A stretch of DNA of 61,254 nt from a virus (IMGVR_UViG_3300032309_001297:1-61254); one strand, 5' to 3'; shown: positions 1-13,986, numbered from the stretch's first letter. Numbers and translations are program-made. The notes: generated by a model not told the origin, from the sequence alone.

Positions 1-91
1 GACATACTTGAAGCGATTGAAGCGGCGAAGGCTTGGCTTGACGAAGAGATTGAGAACGCAAAACAAATAGAAGATGCTGGCGTGGAAATGC

Positions 92-120: not shown

Positions 121-148
121 GGTGTTACCAAACGACGAAAGGATAAAA

Positions 149-304: not shown

Positions 305-462
305 AGATGGAACGCAAGTATGTAGTGAGACGGCGAGTTGTTTTCTCTATTGCGGTGATTGCTTTGGCTTTTGTTATCGGCTCGGTGTCTACAAACCTTT
401 GGTGGACAGGCAACGGCTATTGCTGGGGCGACGGCTTTGAGTGTATGACGGCAGGTAAGTGA
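301..462 (+). CDS. small membrane protein
   Basis: ATGA overlap with upstream gene; basic patch then one hydrophobic helix. Confidence 0.65.
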   Translation: MKMERKYVVRRRVVFSIAVIALAFVIGSVSTNLWWTGNGYCWGDGFECMTAGK

Positions 463-974
463 TGCACACTTGTCAGATACTTTTAGTAGAAGCGGAGAGC
501 CACGAAGAGGCGTTAGACAAGGTTGCTTCAGCGATTACTCATAGCGAAGAACGGTATCCGAATTGGTCAGATTGGCACGACACAAGTCCGTATGCAGGAC
601 GGTGGGATAACTTCTTCGGCAAGGGTAAAAATGTATTGCGTTATACGGAGAACCAAACACTTGCGGAGCAGAAGCTCCAAGAGTGGGTCGGCGGCAGGAA
701 AGCGGAGATGCTGCGTCACTTGGAAGAGGTAAAAACTTTGGACTTGGCGGCGCAAGTAGATGCTTACAACACGGAGAAGAACCAACCTTTTGACGGCGAT
801 GGTATGAAGTTGTATTACCTGAAGAAGTTGGCGAGTCTTTTGCAAGATGATTGGACTTGCGATACGGGCGTGTATGACTTGGAGCAACACACGGGCAACC
901 TGCAATACTTCCGTGAACGGCTCGCCGTTGCACCTGAGATGCAATACCTAGTCCCCGTAGACTTCCACTTTTAG
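459..974 (+). CDS. hypothetical protein
   Basis: 171-aa ORF coupled to upstream stop. Confidence 0.8.
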   Translation: MMHTCQILLVEAESHEEALDKVASAITHSEERYPNWSDWHDTSPYAGRWDNFFGKGKNVLRYTENQTLAEQKLQEWVGGRKAEMLRHLEEVKTLDLAAQVDAYNTEKNQPFDGDGMKLYYLKKLASLLQDDWTCDTGVYDLEQHTGNLQYFRERLAVAPEMQYLVPVDFHF

Positions 975-991
975 ACACGGCTAGAAGATGC

Positions 992-1020
992 TTGACTTGC
1001 CTGCACTTCTGAGTTAGATT
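992..1020 (+). promoter_or_regulatory. sigma-70-type promoter
   Basis: TTGACT-N17-TAGATT with CCTGCAC in spacer. Confidence 0.8.
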
Positions 1021-1048
1021 ATAAATAACAAACGACGGAAGGATAAAA

Positions 1049-1207
1049 ATGACTCAGAGATACGACATAAAGCCTGATTATGAAAGCACAGGTTGGTGGG
1101 TTGTTGATACGGCGAACCGCTATTGCCAAATAGAACTTCACCCAACCCGCGAAAGCGCGTTGCGGAAAGCAATTCAGATGGACAGACCCAAGAAGGTAAA
1201 AAGATGA
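1049..1207 (+). CDS. hypothetical protein (52 aa, below ORF-track cutoff)
   Basis: ATG after AACGACGGAAGGA; MTQRYDIKPDY...; ATGA overlap with next gene. Confidence 0.65.
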   Translation: MTQRYDIKPDYESTGWWVVDTANRYCQIELHPTRESALRKAIQMDRPKKVKR

Positions 1208-1518
1208 TAAAACCAAATCCACTTCGTGAATATGACGAGTTGCAGTTAGGCGACTTCGTTGGTGATACTCAGCGTATGGTTTTGATGCGAACTAAACTGA
1301 GTGAAAGAGTTGTTGGAGATTGTTATGCCTCTTGGGTAGTTATTGGGGTAAAAATTACCGAGTTGCACTCTTATGTCGTATGGACAGTTATTGCGACCTC
1401 AAAAGGTTTTGTTGCCGAGAGAGGCGATTACTTCTCCGAGTTGGTAGATGCCCGAAAGCGATACCAAGAGCGAGGTGGGGTAGTTACCCACCCTTCAGTT
1501 TTAGGGGGCGTGAAATGA
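1204..1518 (+). CDS. hypothetical protein
   Basis: ORF with coupled start at 1204. Confidence 0.7.
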   Translation: MIKPNPLREYDELQLGDFVGDTQRMVLMRTKLSERVVGDCYASWVVIGVKITELHSYVVWTVIATSKGFVAERGDYFSELVDARKRYQERGGVVTHPSVLGGVK

Positions 1519-1598
1519 CCTCAGGTTGGTGGGATTGGTATGGATACCCTGCCCCCAAAGATGTGACGAAAGACACAAAAGAAAAGTTGTAAATGGAG

Positions 1599-1627
1599 TT
1601 GCAATTGTCAGGAAGGTCGTGTAATGT
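1599..1627 (+). promoter_or_regulatory. sigma-70-type promoter
   Basis: TTGCAA-N17-TAATGT with CAGGAAGG in spacer. Confidence 0.6.
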
Positions 1628-1710
1628 AGTTCTTGTTGGTGAGCAAGCCTCTCCAACCACTACCCACAAAGGGTGCGTAGTGCAAAAGACAGAAAGACAG
1701 AGGTTACCAA

Positions 1711-2046
1711 ATGGCAACAGCCAAAGTAATCAGCAAGGTCGTAACTGAGGTTGCGATGGAGCGTCAGGCAGTAACGCTTGACTCAGCCACACAGGCAGTA
1801 ATCACAGAGTTTGTCGCAACACGCGATATGCTCACTTCTTTGGAAAAGACAAAGAAGGCGCTAGAAGCCAAAATCCGTGAGGCACTTGGCGAAGCAGAAG
1901 CAGGCATCGTTGATGGTGTTGTGCGTATTGAGGTCAGCCCTCGCAAGCGAACAGGTGTTGATACAAAGGCACTTGCCGAAGCCTTCCCTGAGGCTTACGA
2001 AGCGACTCAGACCACTACCGAATACTCGGTTCTAGTAGTCAAGTAA
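1711..2046 (+). CDS. hypothetical protein resembling the C-terminal extension of YqaJ-type phage nucleases
   Basis: GAGG RBS; LEAKIREALGEAE...VDTKAL..FPEAYE pattern. Confidence 0.6.
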   Translation: MATAKVISKVVTEVAMERQAVTLDSATQAVITEFVATRDMLTSLEKTKKALEAKIREALGEAEAGIVDGVVRIEVSPRKRTGVDTKALAEAFPEAYEATQTTTEYSVLVVK

Positions 2047-2056
2047 GACTTCACCG

Positions 2057-2091
2057 AAAAGCCCCTCACCGAAAGGTGGGGGGTTTTTCTT
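2057..2091 (+). terminator. intrinsic terminator
   Basis: GCCCCTCACC-GAAA-GGTGGGGGT then T run. Confidence 0.85.
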
Positions 2092-2235
2092 TGCCCAAAA
2101 TTATTCCGAAGTTGGCGAAGGTGATCGGAAAAGTGCGGGGGTAAAAATATGAGATACGCGGCGAAAATCCGGGGGACAGCTCCCGGCCCGTCCCGATACT
2201 TCCAAATAACTTTGTAAAGATTGTTCGGTAAATGC

Positions 2236-2264
2236 TTGCAAATTGCAGGAAGGTTAGGTATGAT
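2236..2264 (+). promoter_or_regulatory. sigma-70-type promoter
   Basis: TTGCAA-N17-TATGAT with TGCAGGAAGG in spacer. Confidence 0.8.
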
Positions 2265-2294
2265 TACTTTGTTCATAACGACGAAAGGACACAA

Positions 2295-2684
2295 ATGGAC
2301 ACGATGGAAAAGCAAGTAGTGGAGTTAGAAAATAACTGCACTTGCACAAATGAAGATGGAAGTTACTCAGCCGATTGTTTCGGTTGCTATGACGATGCAA
2401 AAGACAACCTGAAGTATTTGCTGAAGGGTTGGGCAGATGCCAATAACTTTGATGCGGACAAGCAAGTTGTTCGTATTCACGGCCGGGCGATGACTTGGCT
2501 ACGAAGTGAAGGCTATGCGGTTGTTGAGTTTGACTCAATACTTGATGCCCTCACACTAAATGGCGACTTCCGACTTACCTTCACGCTAGAAGGCTCAGCA
2601 CTTAGCGTGCGGAGAGGCTCACACGATGAGCCTACGGGCGCATACTTCACACTCAGCGTGATGGAGCGTCCTGAAGAAGAGTAG
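2295..2684 (+). CDS. hypothetical protein with CxC/CxxC motifs
   Basis: ATG after AACGACGAAAGGA. Confidence 0.75.
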   Translation: MDTMEKQVVELENNCTCTNEDGSYSADCFGCYDDAKDNLKYLLKGWADANNFDADKQVVRIHGRAMTWLRSEGYAVVEFDSILDALTLNGDFRLTFTLEGSALSVRRGSHDEPTGAYFTLSVMERPEEE

Positions 2685-2711
2685 TAACTGCAAGTAATAG
2701 AAGTCGGAGAG

Positions 2712-2746
2712 ACTCCCGTGTCGGAAGATGCGGGAGTTTTTCTTTT
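2712..2746 (+). terminator. intrinsic terminator
   Basis: ACTCCCGTGTC-GGAA-GATGCGGGAGT then T run. Confidence 0.75.
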
Positions 2747-3142
2747 GTCCCGATGGCTGCGGCAGCGATGCGGGGTAAAAATTTGGCACTTCGTTGATAT
2801 TCCCAGGGCTGCCGTCGGAAACTTCGCAATAATTTCTCCATATTTTCTCCGAAGGGATACCTCTGAAAGCCTTACTGGAGTTCACAGTGCGAGTAAAGTC
2901 GGCAACTCCCTAATAACTTTTGCACCTGGTGCAGGTATTTGCGCTCGCGGAAGCTGGCTGAAGACTGGCAAAATTTTTACCCCGCTGATCGCTGATCGCC
3001 AGGGCCCTGGTCAAAACTTCCAAATAACTTTCCTTCTTTAATTTTCTGGCTGGAGTTGCTTGTTTTGTGCGGGGCGTTCAGTTTTCACCACGGGGGGGAC
3101 AGAACTTCCCAATAACTTTTACAAGAAATCTCCCTGAGATAC

Positions 3143-3170
3143 TTGACAAAGTGCAGAGAGATGATAGATT
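3143..3170 (+). promoter_or_regulatory. sigma-70-type promoter
   Basis: TTGACA-N16-TAGATT with GTGCAGAGAG in spacer. Confidence 0.75.
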
Positions 3171-3203
3171 ACTACCAAGACAAAACGACACAGGGAGAAA
3201 TAA

Positions 3204-3452
3204 ATGTCTAAGCAAAACCTAGAACTAAGTGAAACAGAACTAGAAGTAAACACACTTGCTACTGCAATGTTTATGAAGTTTATGGAAAGCGAAATAGAGC
3301 GCCATAAAAATCATAAAGATTACTCAATGGATAAGTTGTTTGCCTTTATGGAAATGTATGTTCGTGCAGGAGATATTTGGGTGCGGTTGCAGAAGTTGCA
3401 AGGCGCTACACAAGAAGAGATTGCTCAATACCTATCAGAGCAGGAAGTGTAA
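3204..3452 (+). CDS. hypothetical protein
   Basis: GGGAG RBS, follows promoter. Confidence 0.75.
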   Translation: MSKQNLELSETELEVNTLATAMFMKFMESEIERHKNHKDYSMDKLFAFMEMYVRAGDIWVRLQKLQGATQEEIAQYLSEQEV

Positions 3453-3454
3453 AG

Positions 3455-3862
3455 ATGTTACCGAGATATCTTTACCACGCTACTGCGGTTTGTAATCAGG
3501 AAGGCATTGAGCGAGAGGGATTACTCTCAGCGTTCGGTGAAGTCTATGCAAGTGAAAGTGAAAATGATTGCTTAGCGTTTATGGGCTTCAGGTTGATGTC
3601 GCACTTCCATATGGGTAAAAAAGGCGAAGAGCCAGTATTCGTAAAGCACGACAGATTAGTTGTGTTTCAGATTGACACGAAGGTTACCGATAAATCTAAA
3701 TGGGAAGTGGGAACAGACCACAGTCCAGCTTTTTTTGGTAACGCAACCTCTTGGGTTCATCGCGGTTCCATAGCAAGAGAAGCCCTTGTGCGGGTTATTG
3801 AGTTCGCACCTAAACAAGAATTGTCAGATTGGAAGACTGGATTGGAAGTAAAAATCCAATGA
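3455..3862 (+). CDS. putative ADP-ribosyltransferase-fold (KptA/Tpt1-like) protein
   Basis: YLYHAT...IEREGL...VYAS...VFQID pattern. Confidence 0.5.
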   Translation: MLPRYLYHATAVCNQEGIEREGLLSAFGEVYASESENDCLAFMGFRLMSHFHMGKKGEEPVFVKHDRLVVFQIDTKVTDKSKWEVGTDHSPAFFGNATSWVHRGSIAREALVRVIEFAPKQELSDWKTGLEVKIQ

Positions 3863-4266
3863 AAACTATTATCTTTACAGAGAAGTTCAGTATCTACGTT
3901 GGACTAAATGATGCGGTTGGAATCTTTAGTTTGTATCAAACTTTTCTTTCTGAAGAAGAGTTTCTTCACCTGCGGTTAGAAGCCGTAGAGTTTTTTGTTG
4001 CCGAGTCAAGAAGTATGTCGTATCACGATAAATCATTAGACAACAAAGACTTGCGTATGGAGTTTATAGATGGCGCTATTTATGACTATCTCAATGAAGC
4101 GTTTGATGGTCGTAGAGATATAGAAACACCGATGCTGAAGTCGGCTGCCGATGATATTTTGCTGGCAGATGCTTGGCGAAGTGGGGTAAAAATCGGAAAG
4201 AAACAATGGCAACACCTAAATCAAGACGAAGATAATAGGAGGCTAGACAACTATGCAAGCAGATGA
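3859..4266 (+). CDS. hypothetical protein
   Basis: ATGA-coupled ORF. Confidence 0.7.
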   Translation: MKTIIFTEKFSIYVGLNDAVGIFSLYQTFLSEEEFLHLRLEAVEFFVAESRSMSYHDKSLDNKDLRMEFIDGAIYDYLNEAFDGRRDIETPMLKSAADDILLADAWRSGVKIGKKQWQHLNQDEDNRRLDNYASR

Positions 4267-4765
4267 AAAAGTAGTTGCGAGATTGCTGGAACTAAAACCA
4301 GACCAAAAGAAAGCGTGGGGTGGTAATAGAGCTGCGGTTGAAGTTTTAGAGTTTGACAGACTGATTGTAGATGAGATTGAGCGAGGAGTTTCGGCAGTAG
4401 AACTTGCTCTTGCTTTAGGTTATCAAAGTAGTCAAGCAATAACTAATCGCTATAAAAGAGTAAAGCAGAGTTACTCTATTGGTTTCACTCAAAAAGGTGA
4501 GGTGAAATCTACACAGAAGTTTAGAGTGGGCAGACCAAAGTCAATAACAGTAGACACTACTGCGGTAAAAATTCTCACCGAGTTGGAAATTATCTCTAAA
4601 CAATATTCCGACCTGAAGAAAAGAAAGCAAGAACTAATAATCCTTGCTATTGACAATAAAATAACTGCCCGTGAAATAGCAGAGGCTACGGGTCACACTA
4701 CTTTCAATATAAAGAACTTTCGCCATAAGAAGAATCAAGGTTTTTTAGGGGGTGATATAAAATGA
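4253..4765 (+). CDS. double helix-turn-helix DNA-binding protein
   Basis: SAVELALALGY..QAI and TAREIAEATGHT..NI segments. Confidence 0.6.
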   Translation: MQADEKVVARLLELKPDQKKAWGGNRAAVEVLEFDRLIVDEIERGVSAVELALALGYQSSQAITNRYKRVKQSYSIGFTQKGEVKSTQKFRVGRPKSITVDTTAVKILTELEIISKQYSDLKKRKQELIILAIDNKITAREIAEATGHTTFNIKNFRHKKNQGFLGGDIK

Positions 4766-5085
4766 CAAATCAAAATGACATAGAGATAAATGATGAAGAA
4801 CTAGAAGAAGATAGTGAGTTCATTACGGCTGGCGCACTTGCGGAGTATGTAGACCAAGAGTTTGTTGAAGACGAAATTGTTTCTTACCATATCTATTCTA
4901 AGTCCGATGTTGAGTCAGACCTCGGTGTTGAAATCACAGACGAACAATGGATAAAGTTCCTTAGACTCTGGGAGAACGATGAAGTTCTCAATGAAGTTCG
5001 TGCCGAGACTTGGATGCAAGCAATAGGGACTCTTCGTGAAGAACTCGGAATAGAGGAAGAAGACGATGAAGATGATGAAGGTTAG
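4762..5085 (+). CDS. highly acidic hypothetical protein
   Basis: GGGGGTG RBS; very D/E rich. Confidence 0.75.
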   Translation: MTNQNDIEINDEELEEDSEFITAGALAEYVDQEFVEDEIVSYHIYSKSDVESDLGVEITDEQWIKFLRLWENDEVLNEVRAETWMQAIGTLREELGIEEEDDEDDEG

Positions 5086-5180
5086 AGACCTTGTAAATCA
5101 GTTGCAGATGAACTATCTTCCTGATGACGAAGTTGATGTAAAAGTTGTTGTTGGGTTGATGGAAGAATCAGAGGGTAAAA

Positions 5181-5555
5181 ATGTCGGTAACTGAAGAACC
5201 ATTACACGGTTACGAGATGTGCGATGCGTGCGGGACAGCAGTCCCGTGCGTGTCTCAGGAAAAAGTTCCTGATGATGGATTGCACTTTGACTTCCTAAAC
5301 TCAGGTTATTACGGAGGTTTTACAGATAACTATCCACCAAGAGAAGGACTAAACTGGATAATGTGTCACGACTGCGTTGTGAAGTTCTTAGAGACCTTCC
5401 CGATGTTGGCTAACAAAGTCTCAGGTGGGCAACACCCTGCGGATAAAGATGCAAAGCCTTGTTGCAAATGGGCGTGGGCGTTTGATGGAGATGATGTTCT
5501 TTCGGTAGATGCCGATGGCAACTGGGTAAAAGAGAGAAAGCGAGAAGCCGTATGA
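5181..5555 (+). CDS. hypothetical Cys-rich protein
   Basis: CDAC, CHDC, CC motifs. Confidence 0.7.
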   Translation: MSVTEEPLHGYEMCDACGTAVPCVSQEKVPDDGLHFDFLNSGYYGGFTDNYPPREGLNWIMCHDCVVKFLETFPMLANKVSGGQHPADKDAKPCCKWAWAFDGDDVLSVDADGNWVKERKREAV

Positions 5556-5773
5556 GTGAAGCAGTTGATTTGATACCTCTAACAAAGAGCGTGATGTTTG
5601 TTGGGGACTACTTCTCAATGATTACAACAGTTGTTCTCAACGAGGAGTTGCGTGAAGAAGGCGAAGATGATGAGGATTTCGCTATTAGATTGGCTGGAGT
5701 TCTTATTCAAGAGTTCTACGGCTGGGACGTAGTTGCGGTCTCAAAAGAGATTGGTTTAGTAGAAGAAGAGTAG
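5552..5773 (+). CDS. acidic hypothetical protein
   Basis: ATGA-coupled ORF. Confidence 0.7.
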   Translation: MSEAVDLIPLTKSVMFVGDYFSMITTVVLNEELREEGEDDEDFAIRLAGVLIQEFYGWDVVAVSKEIGLVEEE

Positions 5774-6018
5774 AACGTGCGCTGCGGGAGAAATAGGGGT
5801 AAAAATCCTGAGTTATTCTAGAAGCTCCGCGCAGCGCTGAGAATACTCGCGTAGTGCGATGAGGCGGCTCTACCTTCCGCCGCATCTCTCCTCCTACTCC
5901 CTGAGGGGGAGAGGTGTCGGTTGAGGAGCACTTTTAGGCTCGCTCAGCCCCTCTAAAGACGGAAACTGATGCGGTTAGCCTCCTTATAGAACCAAGCAAT
6001 CAGTAGTAAAGTTCTTGT

Positions 6019-6267
6019 ATGTTGATACCCGGAATAGTTGATAAAGAGTTCCATCAGAATGGCTCTGCCGCGCCTTTTGTCGCCGCCATCATTGACGACC
6101 CAAATGACGGAGAAACCAAACTTGTTATTATGTTTGAGGAGTTAGGGCACATTGCGGTGTTGTCGTTAGACAGACTGATTGACTCTGAAGATATTTCGGT
6201 GAAGAACAATTCCCATCACGCTGATCGTCACGAAGACCTTCTTCGAGATCTGCTGTGGGAAGACTAA
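6019..6267 (+). CDS. hypothetical protein, probably leaderless
   Basis: TAAAGT -10-like box 6 nt before ATG, no SD. Confidence 0.65.
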   Translation: MLIPGIVDKEFHQNGSAAPFVAAIIDDPNDGETKLVIMFEELGHIAVLSLDRLIDSEDISVKNNSHHADRHEDLLRDLLWED

Positions 6268-6329
6268 GGGTAAAAATTTTAGCCTGGTAACCAGGCCCAT
6301 CGCTGCGTGAACAAGGGAGATAGAACGCA

Positions 6330-6893
6330 ATGACTACGATTGCTGCGATACAAGGGGAAGGCTGGGCTGTTGTTGCCTATGATTCCCGCGTCTGCGAAGA
6401 CAATCGTTCTTTTATCCTGCCGAAAGATGCTGGGAAAGTTGTTCGTAATGGTCAATACATTTTAGGTGCGGCCGGGGATATGCGTGCCGTGAACCTTTTG
6501 GCGCATTCATTCAAGCCACCTCTACCTGCTGCTACTGATATTGGCATCAAACTGGACAAGTTCATCTCCTCCAAATTCATACCTGCGCTCAAAGCCTGCT
6601 TTGATGAGGCTCAATACGGTGAAAAGGGAGAACAAGACTCAAATGTTCTAGTGATTGTGCACGGAACTATCTATGAGATTGGCTCTGGCTACGATTGGTG
6701 TCACGAAGAAAGAGGCTTTCACGCTCTGGGAACTGGGGCTGACTACGCATTAGGTGCGATGTATCAAGCTTCAGAGGGTAAAAAAAGAACGATGTCCCAC
6801 GCACGCAGCAGCGCAAAGAACGCGGTCGCCATCGCTTGCCGTCTTGACCCCAACTCAGGTGAGCCTGTTTATCTCTTGACCCAGAGTTCCTGA
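6330..6893 (+). CDS. proteasome beta-subunit/HslV-like Ntn threonine peptidase
   Basis: MTTIAA N-terminus, DSR, GK, GAAG, ALGTGADYALG, D..SG motifs. Confidence 0.8.
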   Translation: MTTIAAIQGEGWAVVAYDSRVCEDNRSFILPKDAGKVVRNGQYILGAAGDMRAVNLLAHSFKPPLPAATDIGIKLDKFISSKFIPALKACFDEAQYGEKGEQDSNVLVIVHGTIYEIGSGYDWCHEERGFHALGTGADYALGAMYQASEGKKRTMSHARSSAKNAVAIACRLDPNSGEPVYLLTQSS

Positions 6894-6956
6894 GTAGATT
6901 TCCTCCAGGCTGGATAGCACTTCCAAATAACTTTCCAAAGATTTTCTTGCAAAGAC

Positions 6957-6985
6957 TTGCATCTTCCTGCACTTCCTGTTATAGT
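6957..6985 (+). promoter_or_regulatory. sigma-70-type promoter
   Basis: TTGCAT-N17-TATAGT with CTTCCTGCAC in spacer. Confidence 0.75.
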
Positions 6986-7011
6986 TGTCCTAACGACGAA
7001 AGGACAGCAAG

Positions 7012-7314
7012 ATGTATGGATTACCAGACAGCGCCATCTATGGCACTTACAAGCGTGCAAGGAGAAGTATGAAGCCTGCAAAGCGTGGAGATAACACCAC
7101 CTACATTTATAACCCAAAGGCACTAGATAAGGCACAAGGTGATGAAGAGTTTTTAGGGTTAGCAATTCTTCTTCCTATGATTGCATTAGGAAAGTTGTTT
7201 GACTTCATTGGTTCATCTGCCGAGCGCATTGGTAATCGTGCCGAGCGTTGGGATAGGAAGATGCGAGCCAAGCGTGCCCGACAAATGCTTGACGCAAAAA
7301 AGAAAGTTTCATAA
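7012..7314 (+). CDS. hypothetical basic protein with hydrophobic segment
   Basis: AACGACGAAAGGA RBS. Confidence 0.7.
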   Translation: MYGLPDSAIYGTYKRARRSMKPAKRGDNTTYIYNPKALDKAQGDEEFLGLAILLPMIALGKLFDFIGSSAERIGNRAERWDRKMRAKRARQMLDAKKKVS

Positions 7315-7319
7315 CCTAC

Positions 7320-7348
7320 TTGCAAAATGCAGGAAGGTCTGATAGACT
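7320..7348 (+). promoter_or_regulatory. sigma-70-type promoter
   Basis: TTGCAA-N17-TAGACT with TGCAGGAAGG in spacer. Confidence 0.75.
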
Positions 7349-7383
7349 TACATCTGTAAGACAAAACGACGAAAGGAAACGAA

Positions 7384-7572
7384 ATGATAAATGCAGTTGA
7401 GAACTGGTTGGGTGTAAGCCTTACTAAGCGAGGACGCTATGTTGTTGGGACAATCTTGTTCCTTCTCTTCCTTGCGGTGTTTGCGCTCGCAGACCACATC
7501 ACGACACCTGAAGCGTGCCGAGTTCCACTAGAAGAGATGAGTTCTTTCTGCAAGAACTTGCTCTACCCATAA
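7384..7572 (+). CDS. small membrane protein
   Basis: RBS motif; one TM helix, two Cys. Confidence 0.7.
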   Translation: MINAVENWLGVSLTKRGRYVVGTILFLLFLAVFALADHITTPEACRVPLEEMSSFCKNLLYP

Positions 7573-7594
7573 GCGACGAAAGGACAGGGTAAAA

Positions 7595-8101
7595 ATGTCA
7601 AAGCATAAAGGTGGACGAACGCTCCCCCAAAAAGTATGGACGCCGTTTCAAGAAGCAGTCCCATACGCACACGGGAAGGAAGCAAAAGAATCACTACGGG
7701 AACACGAAACCCTTTGGGCTAACTCGTTCTATGTAGTTCATAAGTTTCTGTTTGAGGCAACTGAAGAAGGTGCAATCCACCTGAGCATCAGACATCAAAA
7801 CAGAAAAGCAATAAGAGATTGGCGACACTTCCAACGCATCAAGAACGAACTTGTTGGTGCGGAAAGAGAAGCCATAGAAATCTTCCCACCCGAAAGCCAA
7901 CTTGTTGATACGGCTAATCAGTATCACTTGTTTGTCTTGCCTGTGGGAGCAACCTCTCCGTTCACTTGGAACGCTGGTCGTAGAGTGACTAGCGACCCCG
8001 ACGACGAAGAGACCCGTAATTGGATAGCGTCTTTAGGTGGCGACCCTGACACAATCGGGGGAGCAGTCCAAAGACCCATAGAAGAAGGATACGAAAGGTA
8101 A
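7595..8101 (+). CDS. conserved phage protein
   Basis: HLSIR..DWRHFQRIKNELVG.EREAIEIFP..SQLVD.ANQYHL family pattern. Confidence 0.7.
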   Translation: MSKHKGGRTLPQKVWTPFQEAVPYAHGKEAKESLREHETLWANSFYVVHKFLFEATEEGAIHLSIRHQNRKAIRDWRHFQRIKNELVGAEREAIEIFPPESQLVDTANQYHLFVLPVGATSPFTWNAGRRVTSDPDDEETRNWIASLGGDPDTIGGAVQRPIEEGYER

Positions 8102-8103
8102 AA

Positions 8104-8304
8104 ATGAAGAGTGCAAACATCGCACAACAGGCTTCGGAACTTTATGACAAAGGTTTTGCCATAGAAGCCGTAGCAAAAGAACTTGGAGTCGCATACCGAA
8201 CTGCACGCAAGGCGATTTATTCGCAGGGCACAGTCGTTAGAGACCCATCAACTCGTTTGGTTGGAAGAACCCGACCTGACAAGAAAAGGAACACAGATGC
8301 CTAA
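8104..8304 (+). CDS. helix-turn-helix protein
   Basis: LYDKGFAIEAVAKELGVAYRTARKAI. Confidence 0.7.
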   Translation: MKSANIAQQASELYDKGFAIEAVAKELGVAYRTARKAIYSQGTVVRDPSTRLVGRTRPDKKRNTDA

Positions 8305-8446
8305 GAACATTGTTTGGACTTCAGTAATCGCTGCGCTCGCTTGCGTTGCGTCAGTAATCGCTGCGGTGACTAACACACCTGACTTGGTTATCTCGTTTGG
8401 GTTTATTGCCCTTACATCTGCAATCCTCAGTTCAAGAGAGAAATAA
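8297..8446 (+). CDS. small two-TM membrane protein
   Basis: AAAGGA RBS, two hydrophobic segments. Confidence 0.6.
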   Translation: MPKNIVWTSVIAALACVASVIAAVTNTPDLVISFGFIALTSAILSSREK

Positions 8447-8477
8447 CAACTACTAATGAAAGACGAAAGGACGCCAA

Positions 8478-8891
8478 ATGTGGCTATTTAGTGAAACAGG
8501 TTTTGTATCTGCGGTCGTAGACCTGCAGGACAAAAAGAAAATGATTGTTCGTGGTCGTGACAAAAAGAGTTTAGAAGCTCTGGCGAAGTTCGCTGGGGTA
8601 AAAATTCTAGATACCCCGCAGCGGGACTACCCACATCGTGTGTTTGTCTCGAAGAAGAAGTATGCGGAGTGGGTGTTGAAGACCATCGAGGAGATGCAAT
8701 ACAACAACTACAAGTCTCGTATGTATCAGACTCGTGGTGCAGACTTCACTCACAGCCTCTCCGAGGTGTGGTCAGTTATGCATCAGGTCTCAGAGAACTA
8801 TGTGAAGCCGACCTACTCCTACACGGGGTTTGCGGACGACTCATACTACGAAGATGAGTATCCAAGTCTCTTTCCAAAAAAGTCAGGCTAA
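8478..8891 (+). CDS. conserved hypothetical phage protein
   Basis: MWLFSETGFVSAV...VRGR...DYPHR; GACGAAAGGA RBS. Confidence 0.75.
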   Translation: MWLFSETGFVSAVVDLQDKKKMIVRGRDKKSLEALAKFAGVKILDTPQRDYPHRVFVSKKKYAEWVLKTIEEMQYNNYKSRMYQTRGADFTHSLSEVWSVMHQVSENYVKPTYSYTGFADDSYYEDEYPSLFPKKSG

Positions 8892-8895
8892 TAAC

Positions 8896-8924
8896 TTGAC
8901 TTCCCTGCAAATGTCAGGTAGATT
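8896..8924 (+). promoter_or_regulatory. sigma-70-type promoter
   Basis: TTGACT-N17-TAGATT with CCCTGCA in spacer. Confidence 0.75.
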
Positions 8925-8953
8925 GGTCTAAAGCCAACAGGGAGGCAAATCAA

Positions 8954-9574
8954 ATGACACAAATGACATCAACATACGCACCAGCATCTGAGAAGCAAAT
9001 CAAGTTTCTAGATGACTTGGTGAAGAGCCGAGAGATTCCATCAGAGATGGTCTCTGCATACCTTGCGGAGAAAGAAACTCTTGACATCAAGAAGGCATCA
9101 AGCCTGATTGACCTTTTCCTGAAGTATCCCAAGATGGTTTTCCAGCCAACCTTGCCATCTCCAGCCTTCGCTGAATTGGTAAAAAAAGCAGAACCTAACC
9201 TCTATGGAGAACTTATTGGGGCACTTCAGGGAGTGCCTAAAAGCAAGTATGCGATACCAGTTTCTGAGTTGATGACTGACCTTCTGAAGGACAAAGTGCA
9301 CGGAGATTTAGTCTTCGTTGAGGTCAAGGAATATATGAAGAAGACCTACATCAAGAAGTTATATGGTTCAGTTGGAGCGTTCACTCGTGTCCGACCAGCC
9401 GTTGAGGACGCCCTTGTGTTTACACGGATAATCAAGACTGACCCATACAAATACACCAAGTTGTTTGCTGAACATTACCAATGCTGTGGCAAATGCGGTG
9501 CTGAACTCACAGACCCTAAGAGTCGTGAGTTGATGCTTGGACCAGAGTGCAGGAAGGCGTTCATACTCCCGTAA
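8954..9574 (+). CDS. DUF6011-like zinc-binding domain protein
   Basis: C-terminal CGKCGAELTDPKSRELMLGPEC; N-terminal ASEKQIKFL. Confidence 0.7.
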   Translation: MTQMTSTYAPASEKQIKFLDDLVKSREIPSEMVSAYLAEKETLDIKKASSLIDLFLKYPKMVFQPTLPSPAFAELVKKAEPNLYGELIGALQGVPKSKYAIPVSELMTDLLKDKVHGDLVFVEVKEYMKKTYIKKLYGSVGAFTRVRPAVEDALVFTRIIKTDPYKYTKLFAEHYQCCGKCGAELTDPKSRELMLGPECRKAFILP

Positions 9575-9588
9575 CCTTTTGTTTGGGT

Positions 9589-9625
9589 AAATCCACCTTT
9601 TGAGGTAGTCTTAGGGGGTGGATTT
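9589..9625 (+). terminator. hairpin, probable terminator
   Basis: AAATCCACCTTTTGAG...CTTAGGGGGTGGATTT inverted repeat. Confidence 0.55.
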
Positions 9626-9747
9626 CCCTGCAACTGTGCTAGGGTTGAGGAGGTAAAGACGTATTAGACAAAATGATGAGGGCTATCTAACGCCCTTCGG
9701 TGCAGTTTCAATAGCACCTGTCCCTATCCCCTAACAAAGGAGCAACA

Positions 9748-10413
9748 ATGCGTATTTCTAAACGCGAAGCAGAAACAGTAGTGTTCGGTTTGTCAATGGC
9801 TTTCGTGCTATTGAGCGCCAGCGCTGCGGTCGCCCAAGCAGTTGGAAAAGACGATAGCCAATCCAATGTAGTAGCAGTATCAGATACAACAACGACATCA
9901 ACGACAGTAAAGAAGAACGTAGTGATCCCTGATCGCGTCGATAGAGGGGTAAAAATCTACTCACTCAAAGCAGCTTCAGTCACTACCCAGCCTCCAGCCC
10001 CATCAGTTCTCGCTAAGTATGCGGAACGTCGAGCACCATTGGAGCCTGAAGAACTCAAAGAACTTCTCCAAGCAGTTGGATTCGAGGGACAAGCCCTCAA
10101 ACTTGCTTGGGGCATTGTGATGCGAGAGTCCCGTGGAGGTCCTACCTCACACAACGGGAACTCCGATACAGGAGATAACTCCTATGGATTATTCCAAATC
10201 AATATGATTGGTGGTCTCGGAGCAGACCGCCGTGAAAAATACGGTCTTACAACCAACGAAGAACTATTCAACCCAGTAGCCAATGCGCGGATTGCCTTCC
10301 TAATGTCAGGTGGAGGAGAAGATTTCGGCGCTTGGGGGGTAGGCAAGAACGCTTATAATGGTGGGAAAGTTGGTGACCTCTATTCGTGGGTTGCTAAGTT
10401 CCCATCAAAGTAG
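9748..10413 (+). CDS. exported lytic transglycosylase/lysozyme-like protein
   Basis: Signal-like N-terminus, Thr linker, IVMRESRG...SYGLFQIN...FNP..NA. Confidence 0.8.
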   Translation: MRISKREAETVVFGLSMAFVLLSASAAVAQAVGKDDSQSNVVAVSDTTTTSTTVKKNVVIPDRVDRGVKIYSLKAASVTTQPPAPSVLAKYAERRAPLEPEELKELLQAVGFEGQALKLAWGIVMRESRGGPTSHNGNSDTGDNSYGLFQINMIGGLGADRREKYGLTTNEELFNPVANARIAFLMSGGGEDFGAWGVGKNAYNGGKVGDLYSWVAKFPSK

Positions 10414-10426
10414 GAAGGAAACCTAT

Positions 10427-10858
10427 ATGTCAGAAGAAATCAAACCAACCGAGCCTGTTGTTCCTACAGTAGATGCGGTTGTTGTTGTTCCAGAACCAGA
10501 AGTTGTTGTGAAGCAAGAAGCTGTAGCTGTAGCTGCAGCAGCTCCTGAAGCTAAGAAGGGTAAAAATTTCGATCAGTCGAACGTAGCTGCCAAAGGTTCT
10601 GGGGTTTATGTCCAGATGGCTGCGCTTGTTTGCTGCGGAAGCGCTCGCAATTCACGCTCTGTCATCTCAGTTCAGAAGCGTCTGATGGAACTTGGTTACT
10701 CCTCTGCAGGAGATGAGAAGAGTGGTTACTTCGGTGAACACACTTGCTCTGCTCTACAAGACTTCCAAAAAGACAAGCGAATAGAATCAAAAGATTGTGC
10801 TGACTTAGCAACGATTGAGGCTTTATTTAGTGGCACGGCAGTAGAAATCCTGCCTTAG
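10427..10858 (+). CDS. peptidoglycan-binding domain protein
   Basis: VQKRLMELGY...GYFGEHT..ALQDFQK (PG_binding_1-like). Confidence 0.7.
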   Translation: MSEEIKPTEPVVPTVDAVVVVPEPEVVVKQEAVAVAAAAPEAKKGKNFDQSNVAAKGSGVYVQMAALVCCGSARNSRSVISVQKRLMELGYSSAGDEKSGYFGEHTCSALQDFQKDKRIESKDCADLATIEALFSGTAVEILP

Positions 10859-10870
10859 TTCTTTCCTATC

Positions 10871-10910
10871 AACGCCCAGTCTCTCATCTATTATTGAGGG
10901 GCTGGGCGTT
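10871..10910. terminator. hairpin/possible terminator
   Basis: AACGCCCAGTCTCTCA...TGAGGGGCTGGGCGTT. Confidence 0.55.
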
Positions 10911-10962
10911 GTTGCGTCCCGTAGCAACGTCATTAGTGCGGACTATGGAAGGACGGCACAAA

Positions 10963-11238
10963 ATGGCAGCAAATACAGAAAAGACCAAAATGGTTCTATC
11001 AAGAATTATGGCGGTGTTCGCAGCATCTGGGTTATCTGTGATTGGGGCTGGCGCTATCGCTGGCGTAGAACTCACACAAGCAATCTTGATGGCTGGTATA
11101 GGTGGCGTGGCGACCGTAGTTGAGGGGTTGAGTCGCGCTTATCTACAAGATGGGAAACTCACTGCGGCAGAGATAGATGATGTCTTTGCGGCTGTAGATA
11201 AGAAAAGGGCACCTAGCAAGGGTGCAGCATCTAAGTAG
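10963..11238 (+). CDS. holin-like membrane protein
   Basis: Two hydrophobic segments, charged C-terminus, next to muralytic genes. Confidence 0.55.
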   Translation: MAANTEKTKMVLSRIMAVFAASGLSVIGAGAIAGVELTQAILMAGIGGVATVVEGLSRAYLQDGKLTAAEIDDVFAAVDKKRAPSKGAASK

Positions 11239-11253
11239 TTAGACCTGTGAACA

Positions 11254-11295
11254 GGAAGACCCAGGGGGAATTTTTACCCCTTGGGTCTCCTCTTT
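11254..11295. terminator. bidirectional terminator between convergent genes
   Basis: AGACCCAGGGGG-AATTTTTA-CCCCTTGGGTCT hairpin, containing a reverse GGGTAAAAA motif. Confidence 0.7.
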
Positions 11296-11550
11296 CTAAA
11301 GTCCTTCTACCGAACAGAGAATTGTTTCCGCATAAATACCTTTAGCGTTCTTCTCGTTTGAGAACCAACCTATGAAGACTCGTCCGTCTCTCTCATCGTC
11401 ATAGTATGCGCCTCGTATATCTAGCCCACACTTATTGCACCTGTCTAGATATTCTTTCGTGTGCGGTTCACTATTGTGACTGTTGTTAGGAATATGTCTC
11501 TTTAGTATTTCTGCTACTTCTGCATCTAGTGGTTCTGTCTTTGTTGTCAT
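11296..11550 (-). CDS. hypothetical protein with H/CxxC motifs
   Basis: Start at MTTKTEP. Confidence 0.65.
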   Translation of the reverse strand: MTTKTEPLDAEVAEILKRHIPNNSHNSEPHTKEYLDRCNKCGLDIRGAYYDDERDGRVFIGWFSNEKNAKGIYAETILCSVEGL

Positions 11551-11552
11551 TG

Positions 11553-11669
11553 TTAGCCCCAGATGAAGCAGGCAATTACTGCAACTGCTACCCCTATGAA
11601 AGCACCAATAGGTGCACCAAAATCTGCGTTCTCGTCTAGCCAATCTTGTAATGCGGTAAATGGGTTCAT
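11553..11669 (-). CDS. small membrane protein (38 aa)
   Basis: MNPFTALQDWLDENADFGAPIGAFIGVAVAVIACFIWG downstream of promoter. Confidence 0.55.
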   Translation of the reverse strand: MNPFTALQDWLDENADFGAPIGAFIGVAVAVIACFIWG

Positions 11670-11719
11670 AGTCGTCGTTTCTCTTTCTGTCCTTTGCTAC
11701 TCCCTGTAGCAATAAGTGA

Positions 11720-11748
11720 ACTATGCCAACCTTCCTGCACTTTGTCAA
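11720..11748 (-). promoter_or_regulatory. sigma-70-type promoter
   Basis: TTGACA-AAGTGCAGGAAGGTTGG-CATAGT on minus strand. Confidence 0.8.
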
Positions 11749-11775
11749 GTCCTCTACGGCGTGTCGTAGAAAAGA

Positions 11776-11808
11776 AAAAACCCCCCTGCCTAAGCAAGGG
11801 GGCTCTTC
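11776..11808 (-). terminator. intrinsic terminator
   Basis: CCCCCTGC-CTAA-GCAAGGGGG hairpin, A run on plus strand (T run on minus). Confidence 0.7.
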
Positions 11809-11818
11809 TGTCCCGTGA

Positions 11819-12193
11819 CTAGATAAGTGTAATGCTAGGTTCTACGAACTTCTGCACCTTTGCTACGGTCAGTTTCATAATGTCTACCTGCTCCTGTGTG
11901 AGTCCAATAGTCTCACCTTCTGAGTCTGTCCCACCTGTGAGAACTATGTCCCCGACTAGGTAGTCCGTGTGTGCCCCGAATACTTTGTCCCACATATATT
12001 GTGCGTATGGGTTATGCGGTAGCCCTGTCAGTTTGCCTTCTTCGTTGCACCACATTGAGAGGTCTGAGGCTAGGTCTATCGCCTGCACCCACCCACCTAC
12101 TGCGGTCTGTAGTTTGTTGAGGCTGTCCGAGGCTAGGTCTAACTCTGTGACCTCTCCTGTTGTTGTTACCTGTAAGGCTGTCTTTGTTGTCAT
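11819..12193 (-). CDS. DUF3846-like protein
   Basis: LQTAVGGWVQAI...MWCNEEGK...N..A...LVGDIVLTG. Confidence 0.8.
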   Translation of the reverse strand: MTTKTALQVTTTGEVTELDLASDSLNKLQTAVGGWVQAIDLASDLSMWCNEEGKLTGLPHNPYAQYMWDKVFGAHTDYLVGDIVLTGGTDSEGETIGLTQEQVDIMKLTVAKVQKFVEPSITLI

Positions 12194-12232
12194 TGGGTGT
12201 CCTTTGTTTTGTTGTTACTTGCTTACGGTGTA

Positions 12233-12261
12233 AGTCTATAGACCTCTCTGCACTTTGTCAA
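12233..12261 (-). promoter_or_regulatory. sigma-70-type promoter
   Basis: TTGACA-AAGTGCAGAGAGGTCTA-TAGACT. Confidence 0.8.
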
Positions 12262-12264
12262 GTC

Positions 12265-12504
12265 TTATCCGTTAGTTAGTTTGTCGTCCTTGTAGCAATC
12301 GTAGGACTCGTGTGTGTCCTCACGCCTTCCACATAGGCAGACCTTTGCGGTGTAGACCTTTGGTCTGCGGTTAGGCAGACTGCCTACTGCTATTACCTCT
12401 ACAACCTCTACCCCTAGTTTCGTGGCTAAAGCTTGTGCGTCTGCCTGTCTTGCGGTGCTGTAGGTGTATTTTTTACCCGACTTAGGGTTAGTTACTTGAT
12501 ACAT
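12265..12504 (-). CDS. hypothetical protein
   Basis: AAAGGA RBS; CLC..H..C motif. Confidence 0.65.
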   Translation of the reverse strand: MYQVTNPKSGKKYTYSTARQADAQALATKLGVEVVEVIAVGSLPNRRPKVYTAKVCLCGRREDTHESYDCYKDDKLTNG

Positions 12505-12603
12505 CTTTGGTGTCCTTTGTTTGTTGCGGTGTGTGTGTGTTGCGGTGGCATTGGAAAGCCCCTCAGGTCAGGGGGTGACCTAAGGGGCTCTAGTCCTAGT
12601 GGG

Positions 12604-12846
12604 TTAGGCGCTTACTGCCTGCAAGATTTGGACTCGTGCGGTGCGACCCCAGATGATGTCCTGCACTTCTGCCATCTCCATCTTGCGGAGTTGCTTAGGT
12701 CCGTTTCCGTCAATCTCCTCAGTAACGATGAAGCGGGTGATGTCGCAAGAACCTGCGAACAACTCACGAACCTTGTTCAGGTTGTCTAGGTGAAAGTAAT
12801 AAGTAACTCCGCCTGCTGTGATTTCTACTCCATAAGTTGTATACAT
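12604..12846 (-). CDS. hypothetical protein
   Basis: GGGAG RBS before MYTTYG. Confidence 0.7.
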   Translation of the reverse strand: MYTTYGVEITAGGVTYYFHLDNLNKVRELFAGSCDITRFIVTEEIDGNGPKQLRKMEMAEVQDIIWGRTARVQILQAVSA

Positions 12847-12892
12847 TGTTTGTTTCTCCCTGTGTAAGTAAGCCTTATTGCTTACAAGAGAT

Positions 12893-12921
12893 AATCTAGC
12901 AACCTTCCTGCACTTTGTCAA
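12893..12921 (-). promoter_or_regulatory. sigma-70-type promoter
   Basis: TTGACA-AAGTGCAGGAAGGTTGC-TAGATT. Confidence 0.8.
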
Positions 12922-12954
12922 GTCTTTCTGCAATATTTTTTAGATTTATTTTTA

Positions 12955-13380
12955 GCCTCTAGGCAAGCCTCTAGGCATAGCCCAACTAGCCCAGCCAGCC
13001 CAAGACCAGCCCAACACAAGAGACTAAGACCTAGACCCAAGACCTAGACCCAAGAGCCAACCCAGCACCTAGAAAGATTTAGTGTCTAGGTAGACCTAAC
13101 ACTTCCTAATAACTTGATGACCTTGACCTGGTGACCAGGCTTGACTACTTCCTAACAACTTGATGACCTTGATAACAATAAACACACCTTGACCAACAAT
13201 GACCACACATAATGATGATTTGACTACACATAGTGATGACCTTGATGACCTTTGATGACTTTGACAAACATAAAAGCAATCACAAAAGCCAAAACCAAAA
13301 GAAAACAAAAACCAAGCAAAAAAACAAAAAAAGGCCCGGAACGATTTGGCGCAGTGCCAAATATAAGCGGGGCCAGCTCG
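12955..13380. repeat. non-coding, strand-skewed short-repeat region (candidate terminus/packaging site or origin)
   Basis: AAGACCTAGACCC x2, several TGATGAC(C/T) units, ACTTCCTAA(T/C)AACTT x2, long A/C tract, hairpin ATTTGGC..GCCAAAT. Confidence 0.7.
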
Positions 13381-13488
13381 CAGCCCAAAGTCAAATAATG
13401 TAAATGTTCATCTTTTCGCCCCTTCCGTACAAAGAGATAGCCCCTCTTTCTCCCGTACGACACTTCAAAACTCCTGTACTATAGGTAA

Positions 13489-13986
13489 ATGGATCAGACG
13501 CCGCTATTGCCTTCAGATGAAGTGACATTCATCAGCTCTCTGCCGCGTCCAGAGGCAGAATCGCGCCTCCGAGTCCTCTGGGAAGCAGGTTGGTCCCTTC
13601 AGGCGCTGGGTAATTCCCTACAGCCACAAAGACCTAAGACCACAATCCACTTCTGGGTAAAAAGAGCACAAATAGTGGAGCAATTTAGGGATATCCCTGC
13701 TCCACCTCCAAAATCCCTAACTACTTCAGTTCCTACCAAATCTGCACCTCGTCTGAGGTCCATTTCTCCGGGCGTCCCTCCCGATATGAAACCTCGACTA
13801 AAAGAACTTAGTGCTCTAGCCCAAAGGTATAGAGCTAAGACAGCCCCAGACAGTCCTCTGGCTTTAGCTAACGACGAGCTGACGGCTGTAGCAAAGACCC
13901 TGAGAAGCATGGGTGTACCGACTGCGGCTATTGCCGAGGCTGCAGGGGTTTCCTACCGAGCAATGGCGAGAAGGTTGAGTAAGTGA
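13489..13986 (+). CDS. double HTH DNA-binding protein, probably leaderless
   Basis: GWSLQALG..TTIHFW and GVPTAAIAEAAGVSYRAM; TACTAT 6 nt before ATG. Confidence 0.7.
   Translation: MDQTPLLPSDEVTFISSLPRPEAESRLRVLWEAGWSLQALGNSLQPQRPKTTIHFWVKRAQIVEQFRDIPAPPPKSLTTSVPTKSAPRLRSISPGVPPDMKPRLKELSALAQRYRAKTAPDSPLALANDELTAVAKTLRSMGVPTAAIAEAAGVSYRAMARRLSK

Follow-up and report, generated by a model that had tools for sequence, protein, structure and literature searches.

The window analysed here, the whole 61,254-nucleotide (nt) stretch of viral record IMGVR_UViG_3300032309_001297, carries an array of one short repeated word, the nonamer GGGTAAAAA, and this array was confirmed as real. Nineteen exact copies were found, 16 on the plus strand and 3 on the minus strand, and all but one of them lie within 623–13663, ahead of the portal gene. 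Judging from its pattern in the window and in related phages, a phage regulator probably docks at the word. The function that we favour, with a probability of about 35%, is that the copies would be directional binding sites for a putative phage-encoded DNA-binding factor, serving as operators or roadblocks in the manner of stoperators.

An asymmetric word repeated ahead of the portal gene

All 18 copies listed between 623 and 13663 in the initial annotation, which had been made from the sequence alone, were exact matches, and the single further copy that it reported, at 19177, was the only other one in the window. In 100 dinucleotide-preserving shuffles of the window the nonamer occurred 0.66 times on average and at most three times, and none reached 19; the probability that at least 18 of the 19 copies would fall in the first 22% of the window was 2.8e−11 (binomial). 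A T follows the nonamer in 13 of the 16 plus-strand copies, as had been noted, and the flanks of the 19 copies have in common only a preceding G and this following T. The commonest 10-mer of the window is GGGTAAAAAT (15 copies, the next best reaching 7), and the full word is the 10-letter gGGGTAAAAATt, without conserved flanks. Alignment of 121 non-identical instances from the window and 14 related sources gave the consensus R-G-GGG-TAAAAA-W-t, a non-palindromic word of 10–12 nt with no −35 or other positional information and nothing upstream of position −2.

Copies with one mismatch numbered 9 in the first 13.7 kb (141, 727, 1041, 1194, 4563, 5524, 8096, 9177 and, on the minus strand, 12949) vs 8 in the remaining 47.6 kb; the near matches previously given at 1194, 4563, 8096 and 9177 were correct, the one placed at 728 starts at 727, and those at 141, 1041, 5524 and 12949 are additional. 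The 14 plus-strand copies from 623 to 10558 are separated by 13 gaps of 471–1351 nt with a coefficient of variation of 0.31, an evenness matched by 0 of 20,000 random placements and absent in the relative G002, in which gaps range from 59 to 4292 nt. An Rfam scan of 1–16000 returned no family at or above the gathering score, and among the matches listed, occurrences of the nonamer in the full-text literature were primers or unrelated strings.

The copies of the window are given below with their surroundings. Genes and open reading frames (ORFs), here and in all counts of context and orientation, were called with our own crude codon-score finder, which is not validated; relatives carry our handles (G for genomes, L for loci).

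623–631, plus: inside ORF 459–974, reading K-G-K-N
1346–1354, plus: inside ORF 1204–1518, reading G-V-K-I
2139–2147, plus: intergenic, after ORF 1711–2046 and 88 nt upstream of the −35 of promoter 2236
2773–2781, plus: non-coding stretch 2685–3203, about 25 nt past a terminator-like hairpin and T-run (2707–2750)
2974–2982, minus: non-coding stretch 2685–3203, opposite to both flanking genes
3613–3621, plus: inside ORF 3377–3862, or directly past a possible ATG at 3611
4184–4192, plus: inside ORF 3829–4266 (G-V-K-I), 60 nt ahead of ATG 4253
5173–5181, plus: junction copy, its last A being the A of the ATG of gene 5181–5555; orthologous copy in G002
5797–5805, plus: 245-nt intergenic stretch 5774–6018; orthologous copy in G002 and own variant in G004
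6268–6276, plus: immediately past the TAA stop of gene 6019–6267, 53 nt before ATG 6330
6776–6784, plus: inside the HslV-like peptidase gene 6330–6893, reading E-G-K-K
7587–7595, plus: junction copy, its last A being the A of the ATG of gene 7595–8101
8596–8604, plus: inside gene 8478–8891; kept in L025 and G002
9947–9955, plus: inside the SLT lysozyme-like gene 9748–10413
10558–10566, plus: inside the peptidoglycan-binding gene 10427–10858
11271–11279, minus: loop and 5' arm of a bidirectional terminator, 11257–11288, between convergent plus and minus units
12470–12478, minus: inside minus-strand gene 12265–12504 (S-G-K-K), co-oriented with the gene
13655–13663, plus: inside gene 13489–13986, encoding W-V-K-R
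19177–19185, plus: lone copy inside an ORF of 3147 residues
12949–12957, minus: one-mismatch copy GGCTAAAAA+T; the −35 of minus-strand promoter 12921 lies about 28 nt downstream

Two of these copies stand apart. Copy 13655 is probably fortuitous, since the word is kept in only 5 of 46 distinct orthologous segments and encodes W-V-K-R in a conserved helix. Copy 19177 is consistent with chance, as 0.66 copies are expected per window; it is the only copy in the structural genes of the window.

Relatives carry lineage-specific variants that switch in concert

A motif scan of the window and its relatives, which had been named beforehand as a check, showed a distribution that is not uniform and is conserved upstream of the portal gene. 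We found 597 portal relatives in viral contigs, most of them partial, and took the best 80 loci. Among loci with sufficient upstream sequence, between 6 and 9 plus-strand copies occur in the 10 kb before the portal gene in L011, L024, L025, L026, L041, L045, L052, L054, L061, L062, L063, L074, L084 and L089. The complete genome G001 (135,031 bp, with terminal repeats) holds 19 copies, 18 of them within 59,710–77,874, with its portal gene at about 83.5 kb; G002, a record that duplicates about 24 kb of itself, holds 31, mostly within 19.5–41.7 kb; and all 21 copies of G003 lie at 31.3–56.8 kb.

Other lineages bear their own form of the word. The window has GGGGTAAAAAT and G004 AGGTAAAAAAT, the variant of G004 and L067 being AGGTAAAAA(A)T with 17 plus-strand and 2 minus-strand copies in 40 kb; L021 has SGATAAAAAT, that is (C/G)GATAAAAAT (13 plus, 2 minus), and L082, L066 and L080 have AGGGGGAAAAA. 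The clearest comparison is between sister lineages with a T variant, GGGGTAAAAA (G008, L052 and L074), and a G variant, GGGGGAAAAA (G007, G006 and G009): 20 of 21 copies in G007 have G and one has T, while all 16 copies in its close sister G008 have T. The proteins of G007 and G008 are mostly 75–98% identical, and the orthologous sites of the T and G sisters differ by one letter only, plus an added box. Within a genome, then, the word is uniform, and between close relatives it switches in concert. The ribosome or the host sigma factor alone would not produce such a pattern, which points to a phage-encoded reader, and the concerted lineage variants suggest that this reader co-evolves with its site.

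Selection on the nucleic acid, and the genomic contexts of the word

When orthologous segments were compared at in-gene copies, the word was found to be kept at orthologous positions, in differing frames and in the variant proper to each lineage. The peptidoglycan-binding gene keeps the word or its lineage variant at 38–48% protein identity in two frames (GKN, VKN, GKK); the SLT gene has, at the place of copy 9947, GAGGTAAAAAA in G004 and CGGATAAAAAT in L021 within an otherwise unalignable stretch; and gene 8478 keeps GTAAAAATT at 43% protein identity (L025 and G002). Because of this persistence, selection must act on the nucleic acid, as had been proposed. Codon choice at copy 6776 is kept within the lineage of the window and not in that of G001.

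The contexts described earlier were likewise found, comprising intergenic DNA, the terminator loop at 11257–11288 and genes in two frames (GKN/GKK and GVKI). Copies inside genes make up 10/19 in the window, 11/24 in G002, 9/19 in G004, 4/19 in G001, 3/21 in G003, 2/18 in G008 and 1/24 in G007. Of the 144 copies in these seven genomes, 120 run in the same direction as the gene around them or as both flanking genes, 18 are opposite and 6 have mixed flanks, which upheld the claim that orientation mostly follows transcription; in G007, 8 of 24 copies are opposite to both flanking genes.

Relation to start codons depends on lineage. In the G001 lineage an ATG or GTG lies at offset −1 to +3 in 37 of 83 copies, start codons at the word are conserved between G001 and G003, and in G001 the upstream gene ends on the TAA of the word in 5 core copies, with a stop directly ahead in 3. 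In the lineage of the window, an ATG or GTG at −1 to +1 accompanies 9 of 62 copies and none lies within 12 nt of 44 of 62; the G002 ortholog of junction copy 7587 sits past the same ATG, at codons 3–6. The forms GGGGT, GAGGT and GGGGG would be able to pair with the anti-Shine-Dalgarno sequence (inferred from sequence), and the CGAT/GGAT of L021 would pair poorly.

Post-terminator copies are present in all lineages; those 8–25 nt past an intrinsic terminator include 2773 in the window, 19901 and 20366 in G002, 22693, 24468 and 25677 in G001, and most L082 copies. Several copies occupy the gap from a terminator to the sigma-A promoter that follows it, a place expected to yield little sense RNA: 2773 in the window, 19901 and 20366 in G002, 22693 in G001, 56, 425 and 892 in L082 and 521 in L066. 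Copy 11271 has its G-run in the terminator stem, and where the corresponding units converge in G002 and in G004, a hairpin loop contains the respective variant of the word. An 18-nt inverted repeat (2770–2787 and 2968–2985, 94% complementary, 180 nt apart) has copy 2773 (plus) as its left arm and copy 2974 (minus) as its right; the non-coding stretch that holds it is about 520 nt long, and a comparable stretch of G002 spans about 850 nt without coding signal and has three minus-strand copies.

In the GGGGGAAAAA lineage, all 4 copies with a downstream canonical promoter (L082 and L066) have their start at precisely 51 nt from its −10, and 15 of 24 copies in G007 carry a TATA-like box, aCTATATAnnAG, 5–6 nt upstream, a box absent at all 18–24 copies each in the window, G001, G002 and G008. 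No enrichment of TTG or GTTT was seen upstream of copies. The word departs from the sigma-70/sigma-A layout of a −35 and a TAnnnT −10 at 16–18 bp spacing, its TAAAAAT being TA-N4-T. Predicted unpaired probability of the word in RNA was the same with native as with shuffled flanks in what is a weak test (0.555 vs 0.557, n = 62; 0.523 vs 0.550, n = 78).

The word is separate from the promoters and leader of the region

Nine sigma-A-type promoters occur in the same 13 kb, seven on the plus strand and two on the minus strand, of the form TTGACn-17-TAGATT or TATGAT.

92–120, plus: sigma-A-type promoter, TTGACC-17-TATGAT, first of the seven on this strand
992–1020, plus: sigma-A-type promoter
2236–2264, plus: sigma-A-type promoter
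3143–3170, plus: sigma-A-type promoter
6957–6985, plus: sigma-A-type promoter
7320–7348, plus: sigma-A-type promoter
8896–8924, plus: sigma-A-type promoter
12261–12233, minus: sigma-A-type promoter, TTGACA-17-TAGACT
12921–12893, minus: sigma-A-type promoter, TTGACA-17-TAGATT

About 30 nt past each promoter comes a conserved leader, AACGACGAAAGGA, followed by ATG. The plus-strand promoters delimit transcription units, and among the units so defined in the window only one is without any copy of the word, the 300-nt unit 6957–7314, whose sole gene is 7012–7314. The phage DSL-LC01, which shares a related portal gene (see below), has 0 copies of the word; its region matching the array (L009, 2223–11958) has 14 copies of TCTAAAGaTGTTATAATaGAATC, an extended −10 promoter flanked by the palindrome GATTCTA...TAGAATC, which is probably an operator. 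The word is distinct from both the sigma-A-type promoters and the ribosome-binding leader of the region, and since those are other elements, and DSL-LC01 without the word carries extended −10 promoters, we regard it as a third, separate repeated element.

The promoter spacers carry CCTTCCTGCA or its complement TGCAGGAAGG, in either orientation, which may be an operator inside the promoter; in relatives this spacer word appears as TTCCTGCAC, with 7 copies in L025 and L038. The leader, (A)ACGACGAAAGGA, stands at 134, 1034, 2280, 6995, 7368, 7575 and 8462, ahead of the first gene after each promoter; DSL-LC01 has 13–16 copies of it, and in its conservation it resembles the start-associated sequences (SAS) discussed below. 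Another element, ACTTCCnAATAACTT(T), lies at 2198, 3016, 3104, 6919 and 13101, with looser matches at 2822 and 2906, and is also found in G004; it precedes the −35 of promoters 2236, 3143 and 6957 by about 25 nt, and four copies spaced 84–111 nt apart occupy the non-coding stretch 2685–3203. A different word, CGCCAGTGCGC, has 14 copies on one strand in L044 and 7 in L042.

Candidate readers of the word

The initial annotation had put forward three helix-turn-helix (HTH) genes, at 4253, 8104 and 13489, as encoding possible binders, and none of them held up. Two have recognizable modules:

8104–8304, plus: gene for a 66-residue HTH_7/HTH_23-like protein (Pfam match below cut-off)
13489–13986, plus: gene for a candidate DNA binder with two tethered HTH modules (predicted structure)

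The recognition helix of the first, GVAYRTARKAI, is invariant across variant lineages and present in DSL-LC01, which lacks the word. The second has a predicted fold (predicted local distance difference test score, pLDDT, 84) of two helical HTH-like modules with a proline-rich linker between them; its C-terminal module resembles KorB/ParB/DeoR-type HTH domains with middling scores only (Z 4–6), a Foldseek search returned nothing with E ≤ 0.001, and its language-model neighbours, a lead only, were viral HTH proteins with Sigma70_r4 (0.86–0.87). Neither of its helices differs among phages with GGGTAAAAA, AGGTAAAAA and SGATAAAAA or between L084 (T variant) and L066 (G variant), and the protein also occurs in DSL-LC01. 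The product of 4253–4765 has no HTH match in Pfam, and searches of complete G001 and of 40-kb stretches of G003 and G004 found no relative; it is 97% identical to its G002 counterpart, and its single-sequence AlphaFold model (pLDDT 51) was too poor for a structure search.

Comparison of T and G sisters gene by gene, over 10 kb and then over the whole partial contigs of G008 vs G007 and G006, turned up no DNA-binding protein that stood out convincingly; among the proteins common to them, the most divergent is acidic. Small proteins common to all word-bearing lineages (5552, 6019, 8297, 7384 and 10963) were set aside as acidic or membrane proteins. An injected polymerase reading the word is without support: a pattern search of the 3147-residue virion protein found neither a DxDGD motif nor T7 motif B, and the single-subunit polymerase family PF00940 gave no match, uninformatively, as its control matched in no genome. 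Across five records we found no match to Sigma70_r2, no tyrosine integrase, and no match to the RegB family PF10715, the last a weak negative since its control likewise matched in no genome.

Proposed function and alternatives

We consider that the word most likely acts on DNA, and we infer a protein reader, reading at the DNA level and a block to transcription. Host RNA polymerase would read the non-structural units from sigma-A-type promoters through sites placed about one per 0.5–1.3 kb, mostly along transcription. The factor, once made, would occupy these sites as an operator or a directional roadblock, and when bound would stop or gate RNA polymerase travelling through the units; copies past terminators or upstream of the next promoter might reinforce weak unit boundaries, and the outcome would be a non-structural block switched off or insulated. 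A DNA-level site is compatible with every context in which the word occurs, namely mid-gene, at junctions, in terminator loops, after terminators and in gaps between terminator and promoter. It is favoured because it fits copies for which little sense RNA is expected and agrees with the null result on RNA accessibility, and among the readings a stoperator-like protein-binding array would fit most contexts. The earlier suggestion of such an array is borne out insofar as it is real, confined to one region, asymmetric and best fitted by this reading, with RNA or translation-start and promoter readings as possible rivals; its accompanying label of an early region agrees with the nine host-type promoters but is too simple, as a lysis-like cassette is there too.

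Several observations weigh against binding sites of this kind. All three HTH candidates fail, two for want of co-variation with the word and one for want of relatives in G001 and the searched stretches of G003 and G004. No sign of lysogeny, the setting of known stoperators, was seen, as the five records searched gave no integrase and only a resolvase of about 225 residues. Most variants resemble a Shine-Dalgarno sequence with an A-rich spacer, the start codons and TAA stops at the word in the G001 lineage suit a role in translation or RNA, and the TATA-like boxes and opposite copies of G007 look like promoter cassettes. The crudeness of the gene calls and the weakness of the RNA-accessibility test bear on the same side.

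The word might instead be an RNA-level element of non-structural mRNAs, often doubling as Shine-Dalgarno sequence plus spacer and read by a phage translational repressor or endoribonuclease for post-transcriptional shut-off or tuning, which we hold to be doubtful. Most copies are in sense orientation, the word (4–5 G-rich nt and 6–7 A-rich nt, about 11 nt in total) resembles the T4 RegB/S1 site GGAGAAUAAAA, start codons adjoin it in the G001 lineage and are conserved from G001 to G003, and two copies of the window, 5173 and 7587, are at junctions; SAS are likewise asymmetric, one-way and confined to the non-structural half (PMC3203893). In the lineage of the window, however, start codons are few and mostly distant, more than half of the copies in the window are mid-gene, and the G002 ortholog of 7587 lies past its start codon. 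Copies also occur between terminators and promoters and, in G007, antisense to both neighbours, the L021 variant is a poor Shine-Dalgarno sequence, no selection for accessibility was detected, and no RegB match was found, which in view of its control is a weak negative.

A phage-specific promoter core, with the G-run at the start region or TAAAAA as a −10-like box, used by host polymerase with a phage factor as middle or late promoters in tandem with sigma-A promoters, seems unlikely to us. The boxed copies of G007, often just past an intrinsic terminator and in cassettes of both orientations, speak for it, as do the post-terminator copies of all lineages, genes that follow copies with no other promoter (L082 1303, 4427 and 4906), and the co-oriented copy or one-mismatch variant found 28–400 nt upstream of 7 of the 9 promoters in the window; the layout also resembles the T4 late box or a T7-type TATA with GGG. 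Yet in the other lineages neither a TATA box nor any conserved signal upstream or at −35 is present, and many copies abut a start codon, so that transcription beginning about 7 nt downstream would start within the gene. Copies 623, 6776 and 8596 of the window precede only a gene remnant and then a canonical promoter, and the negatives for Sigma70_r2 and for polymerase motifs in the virion protein count against the idea as well. It is quite improbable that the word has no reader and is a junction or linker, either a cassette of stop, Shine-Dalgarno sequence, spacer and start or a micro-homology that shuffles small genes and is homogenised by recombination. The stops formed by or directly ahead of the word in G001 fit this, terminator-plus-word cassettes look modular, and copies mark the ends of some BLAST segments shared by the window with relatives (2784, 5183, 6785, 8611 and 11285), but an alignment end is expected anyway at a perfectly conserved island, so the breakpoint evidence is not convincing. 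No copy marks the end of the one clearly exchanged module, 4257–4778, copies of the same genome have unrelated flanks, and mid-gene copies in different frames require selection on the word itself.

Comparison with known systems

Stoperators are asymmetric, transcription-oriented sites bound by a monomeric two-domain repressor, and occur at promoters and short intergenic spaces (PMC9283540); their variants are reported to differ between related phages (PMC9283540; PMC6550527). They are 13 bp long and occur genome-wide in temperate phages with a known immunity repressor. The word is like the stoperators of Cluster A phages (L5 gp71-type repressor) in being short and asymmetric, in many copies whose orientation tracks transcription, with variants among related phages. 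It differs in its length of 10–12 nt, in its confinement to about 13–22 kb rather than spread over early and late operons (18 of 19 copies within 18 kb of G001), and in the location of half of the window copies inside genes; neither a repressor nor an integrase was found in the records searched.

The SAS of Cluster K phages and of Cluster EF Microbacterium phages are asymmetric and highly conserved, with a Shine-Dalgarno-like core, and occur as 10–19 copies in one orientation in the non-structural region, their function being described as not known (PMC3203893; PMC7302621). Virtually all lie 3–7 bp ahead of a start codon. The word shares the Shine-Dalgarno core, the largely single orientation and the region, and the G001 lineage fits well; unlike SAS, it seldom adjoins a start codon in the window lineage, is often mid-gene, and has no GGG...CCC frame or extended inverted repeats. 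The T4 RegB/S1 site lies mostly in Shine-Dalgarno sequences of early mRNAs, with about two dozen occurrences in this one temporal class of transcripts (PMC1702504). The likeness lies in an 11-nt unit that combines a G-rich block resembling a Shine-Dalgarno sequence with 7 A-rich nt; the T4 sites follow a degenerate consensus, in contrast to a nearly invariant word, and whereas RegB/S1 sites are single-stranded features of intergenic early mRNA, the word is found in genes, after terminators and antisense, with accessibility equal to that of shuffled flanks. Like a compact phage promoter, the word of the GGGGGAAAAA lineage comes after terminators and has CTATATA a constant distance ahead of it; unlike one, it has no upstream box in the window lineage and touches the start codon in many copies. 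Such promoters include the T4 late promoter TATAAATA and the T7-type TATA followed by GGG. Failing at least one defining feature of each, the array falls outside the stoperator, SAS and RegB classes.

The source phage and its array region

The window is an entire IMG/VR viral record, judged 46% complete, and no near-identical record was found in the phage collection. Its portal gene, 14998–16752, shares 69% DNA identity with the portal gene of Actinomycetia phage DSL-LC01, a 129-kb lake phage whose layout matches the window (a run of small genes, then the portal gene, then a giant ORF). The array region encodes the HslV-like peptidase, DUF7694, DUF6011 and DUF3846 proteins and many small proteins without known family. 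A lysis-like cassette (9748–11238), upstream of the structural genes and driven by promoter 8896, comprises the SLT lysozyme-like, the peptidoglycan-binding and a conserved membrane protein. The product of gene 7012–7314 is small and basic, begins with the conserved residues M-Y-G-L-P-D-S-A-I-Y-G-T-Y-K-R and has relatives in every word-bearing lineage examined.

The giant ORF (18089–27532, 3147 residues) follows the portal gene and a DUF5824 protein, and its G008 counterpart has 3527 residues; the protein holds a DEDD (RNase_T) exonuclease domain at 1117–1281 and a Nudix (RenU-like) domain at 1562–1719, the rest being without family. Segment 4257–4778 is 95% identical in DNA and 97% in protein to its G002 counterpart, neighbouring genes showing 48–80% protein identity, and looks like a recently exchanged module. 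The resolvase of about 225 residues, found in 4 of the 5 records, is a small serine recombinase (resolvase domain, 222–233 residues) encoded in the more complete relatives, at 33666–34106 in G001, 68653–69096 in G002 and 76912–77355 in G003.

Four lake or freshwater metatranscriptome runs contain 5–8% of the words sampled. Their contigs over 1–16000 are short and of low depth, too thin for starts, ends or cleavage, and no molecule starts or ends were placed; three span copy 7587 (7503–7653, 7412–7610 and 7419–7616). In run X1, the bin 12817–13350 has a mean contig depth of 295 and poly-A loose ends at 13298 and 13332, a peak that is probably a low-complexity artefact.

Implications for freshwater actinophages

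To our knowledge, the repeated asymmetric words of cultured actinobacteriophages are stoperators and SAS, and a mechanism is proven only for stoperators. The word described here is comparable, and no other non-coding word is as common in this widespread group of lake phages, which are uncultured and about 130 kb in size. As a tentative possibility, large, apparently lytic phages of freshwater actinobacteria would gate a block of 13–22 kb of host-transcribed genes through a dispersed word of 10–12 nt, with reader and word co-evolving fast enough to turn T into G at every orthologous site; the reader would then be a new regulator, either of a non-lysogenic, stoperator-like elongation block or as an actinobacterial counterpart of RegB/S1. 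If the word acts in RNA, RegB-like or SAS-like control would be extended to a new host phylum and the SAS class would gain a testable relative. The T and G sister lineages provide a clean comparative system in which to find the reader and to study the timing and insulation of non-structural genes in large lytic actinophages.

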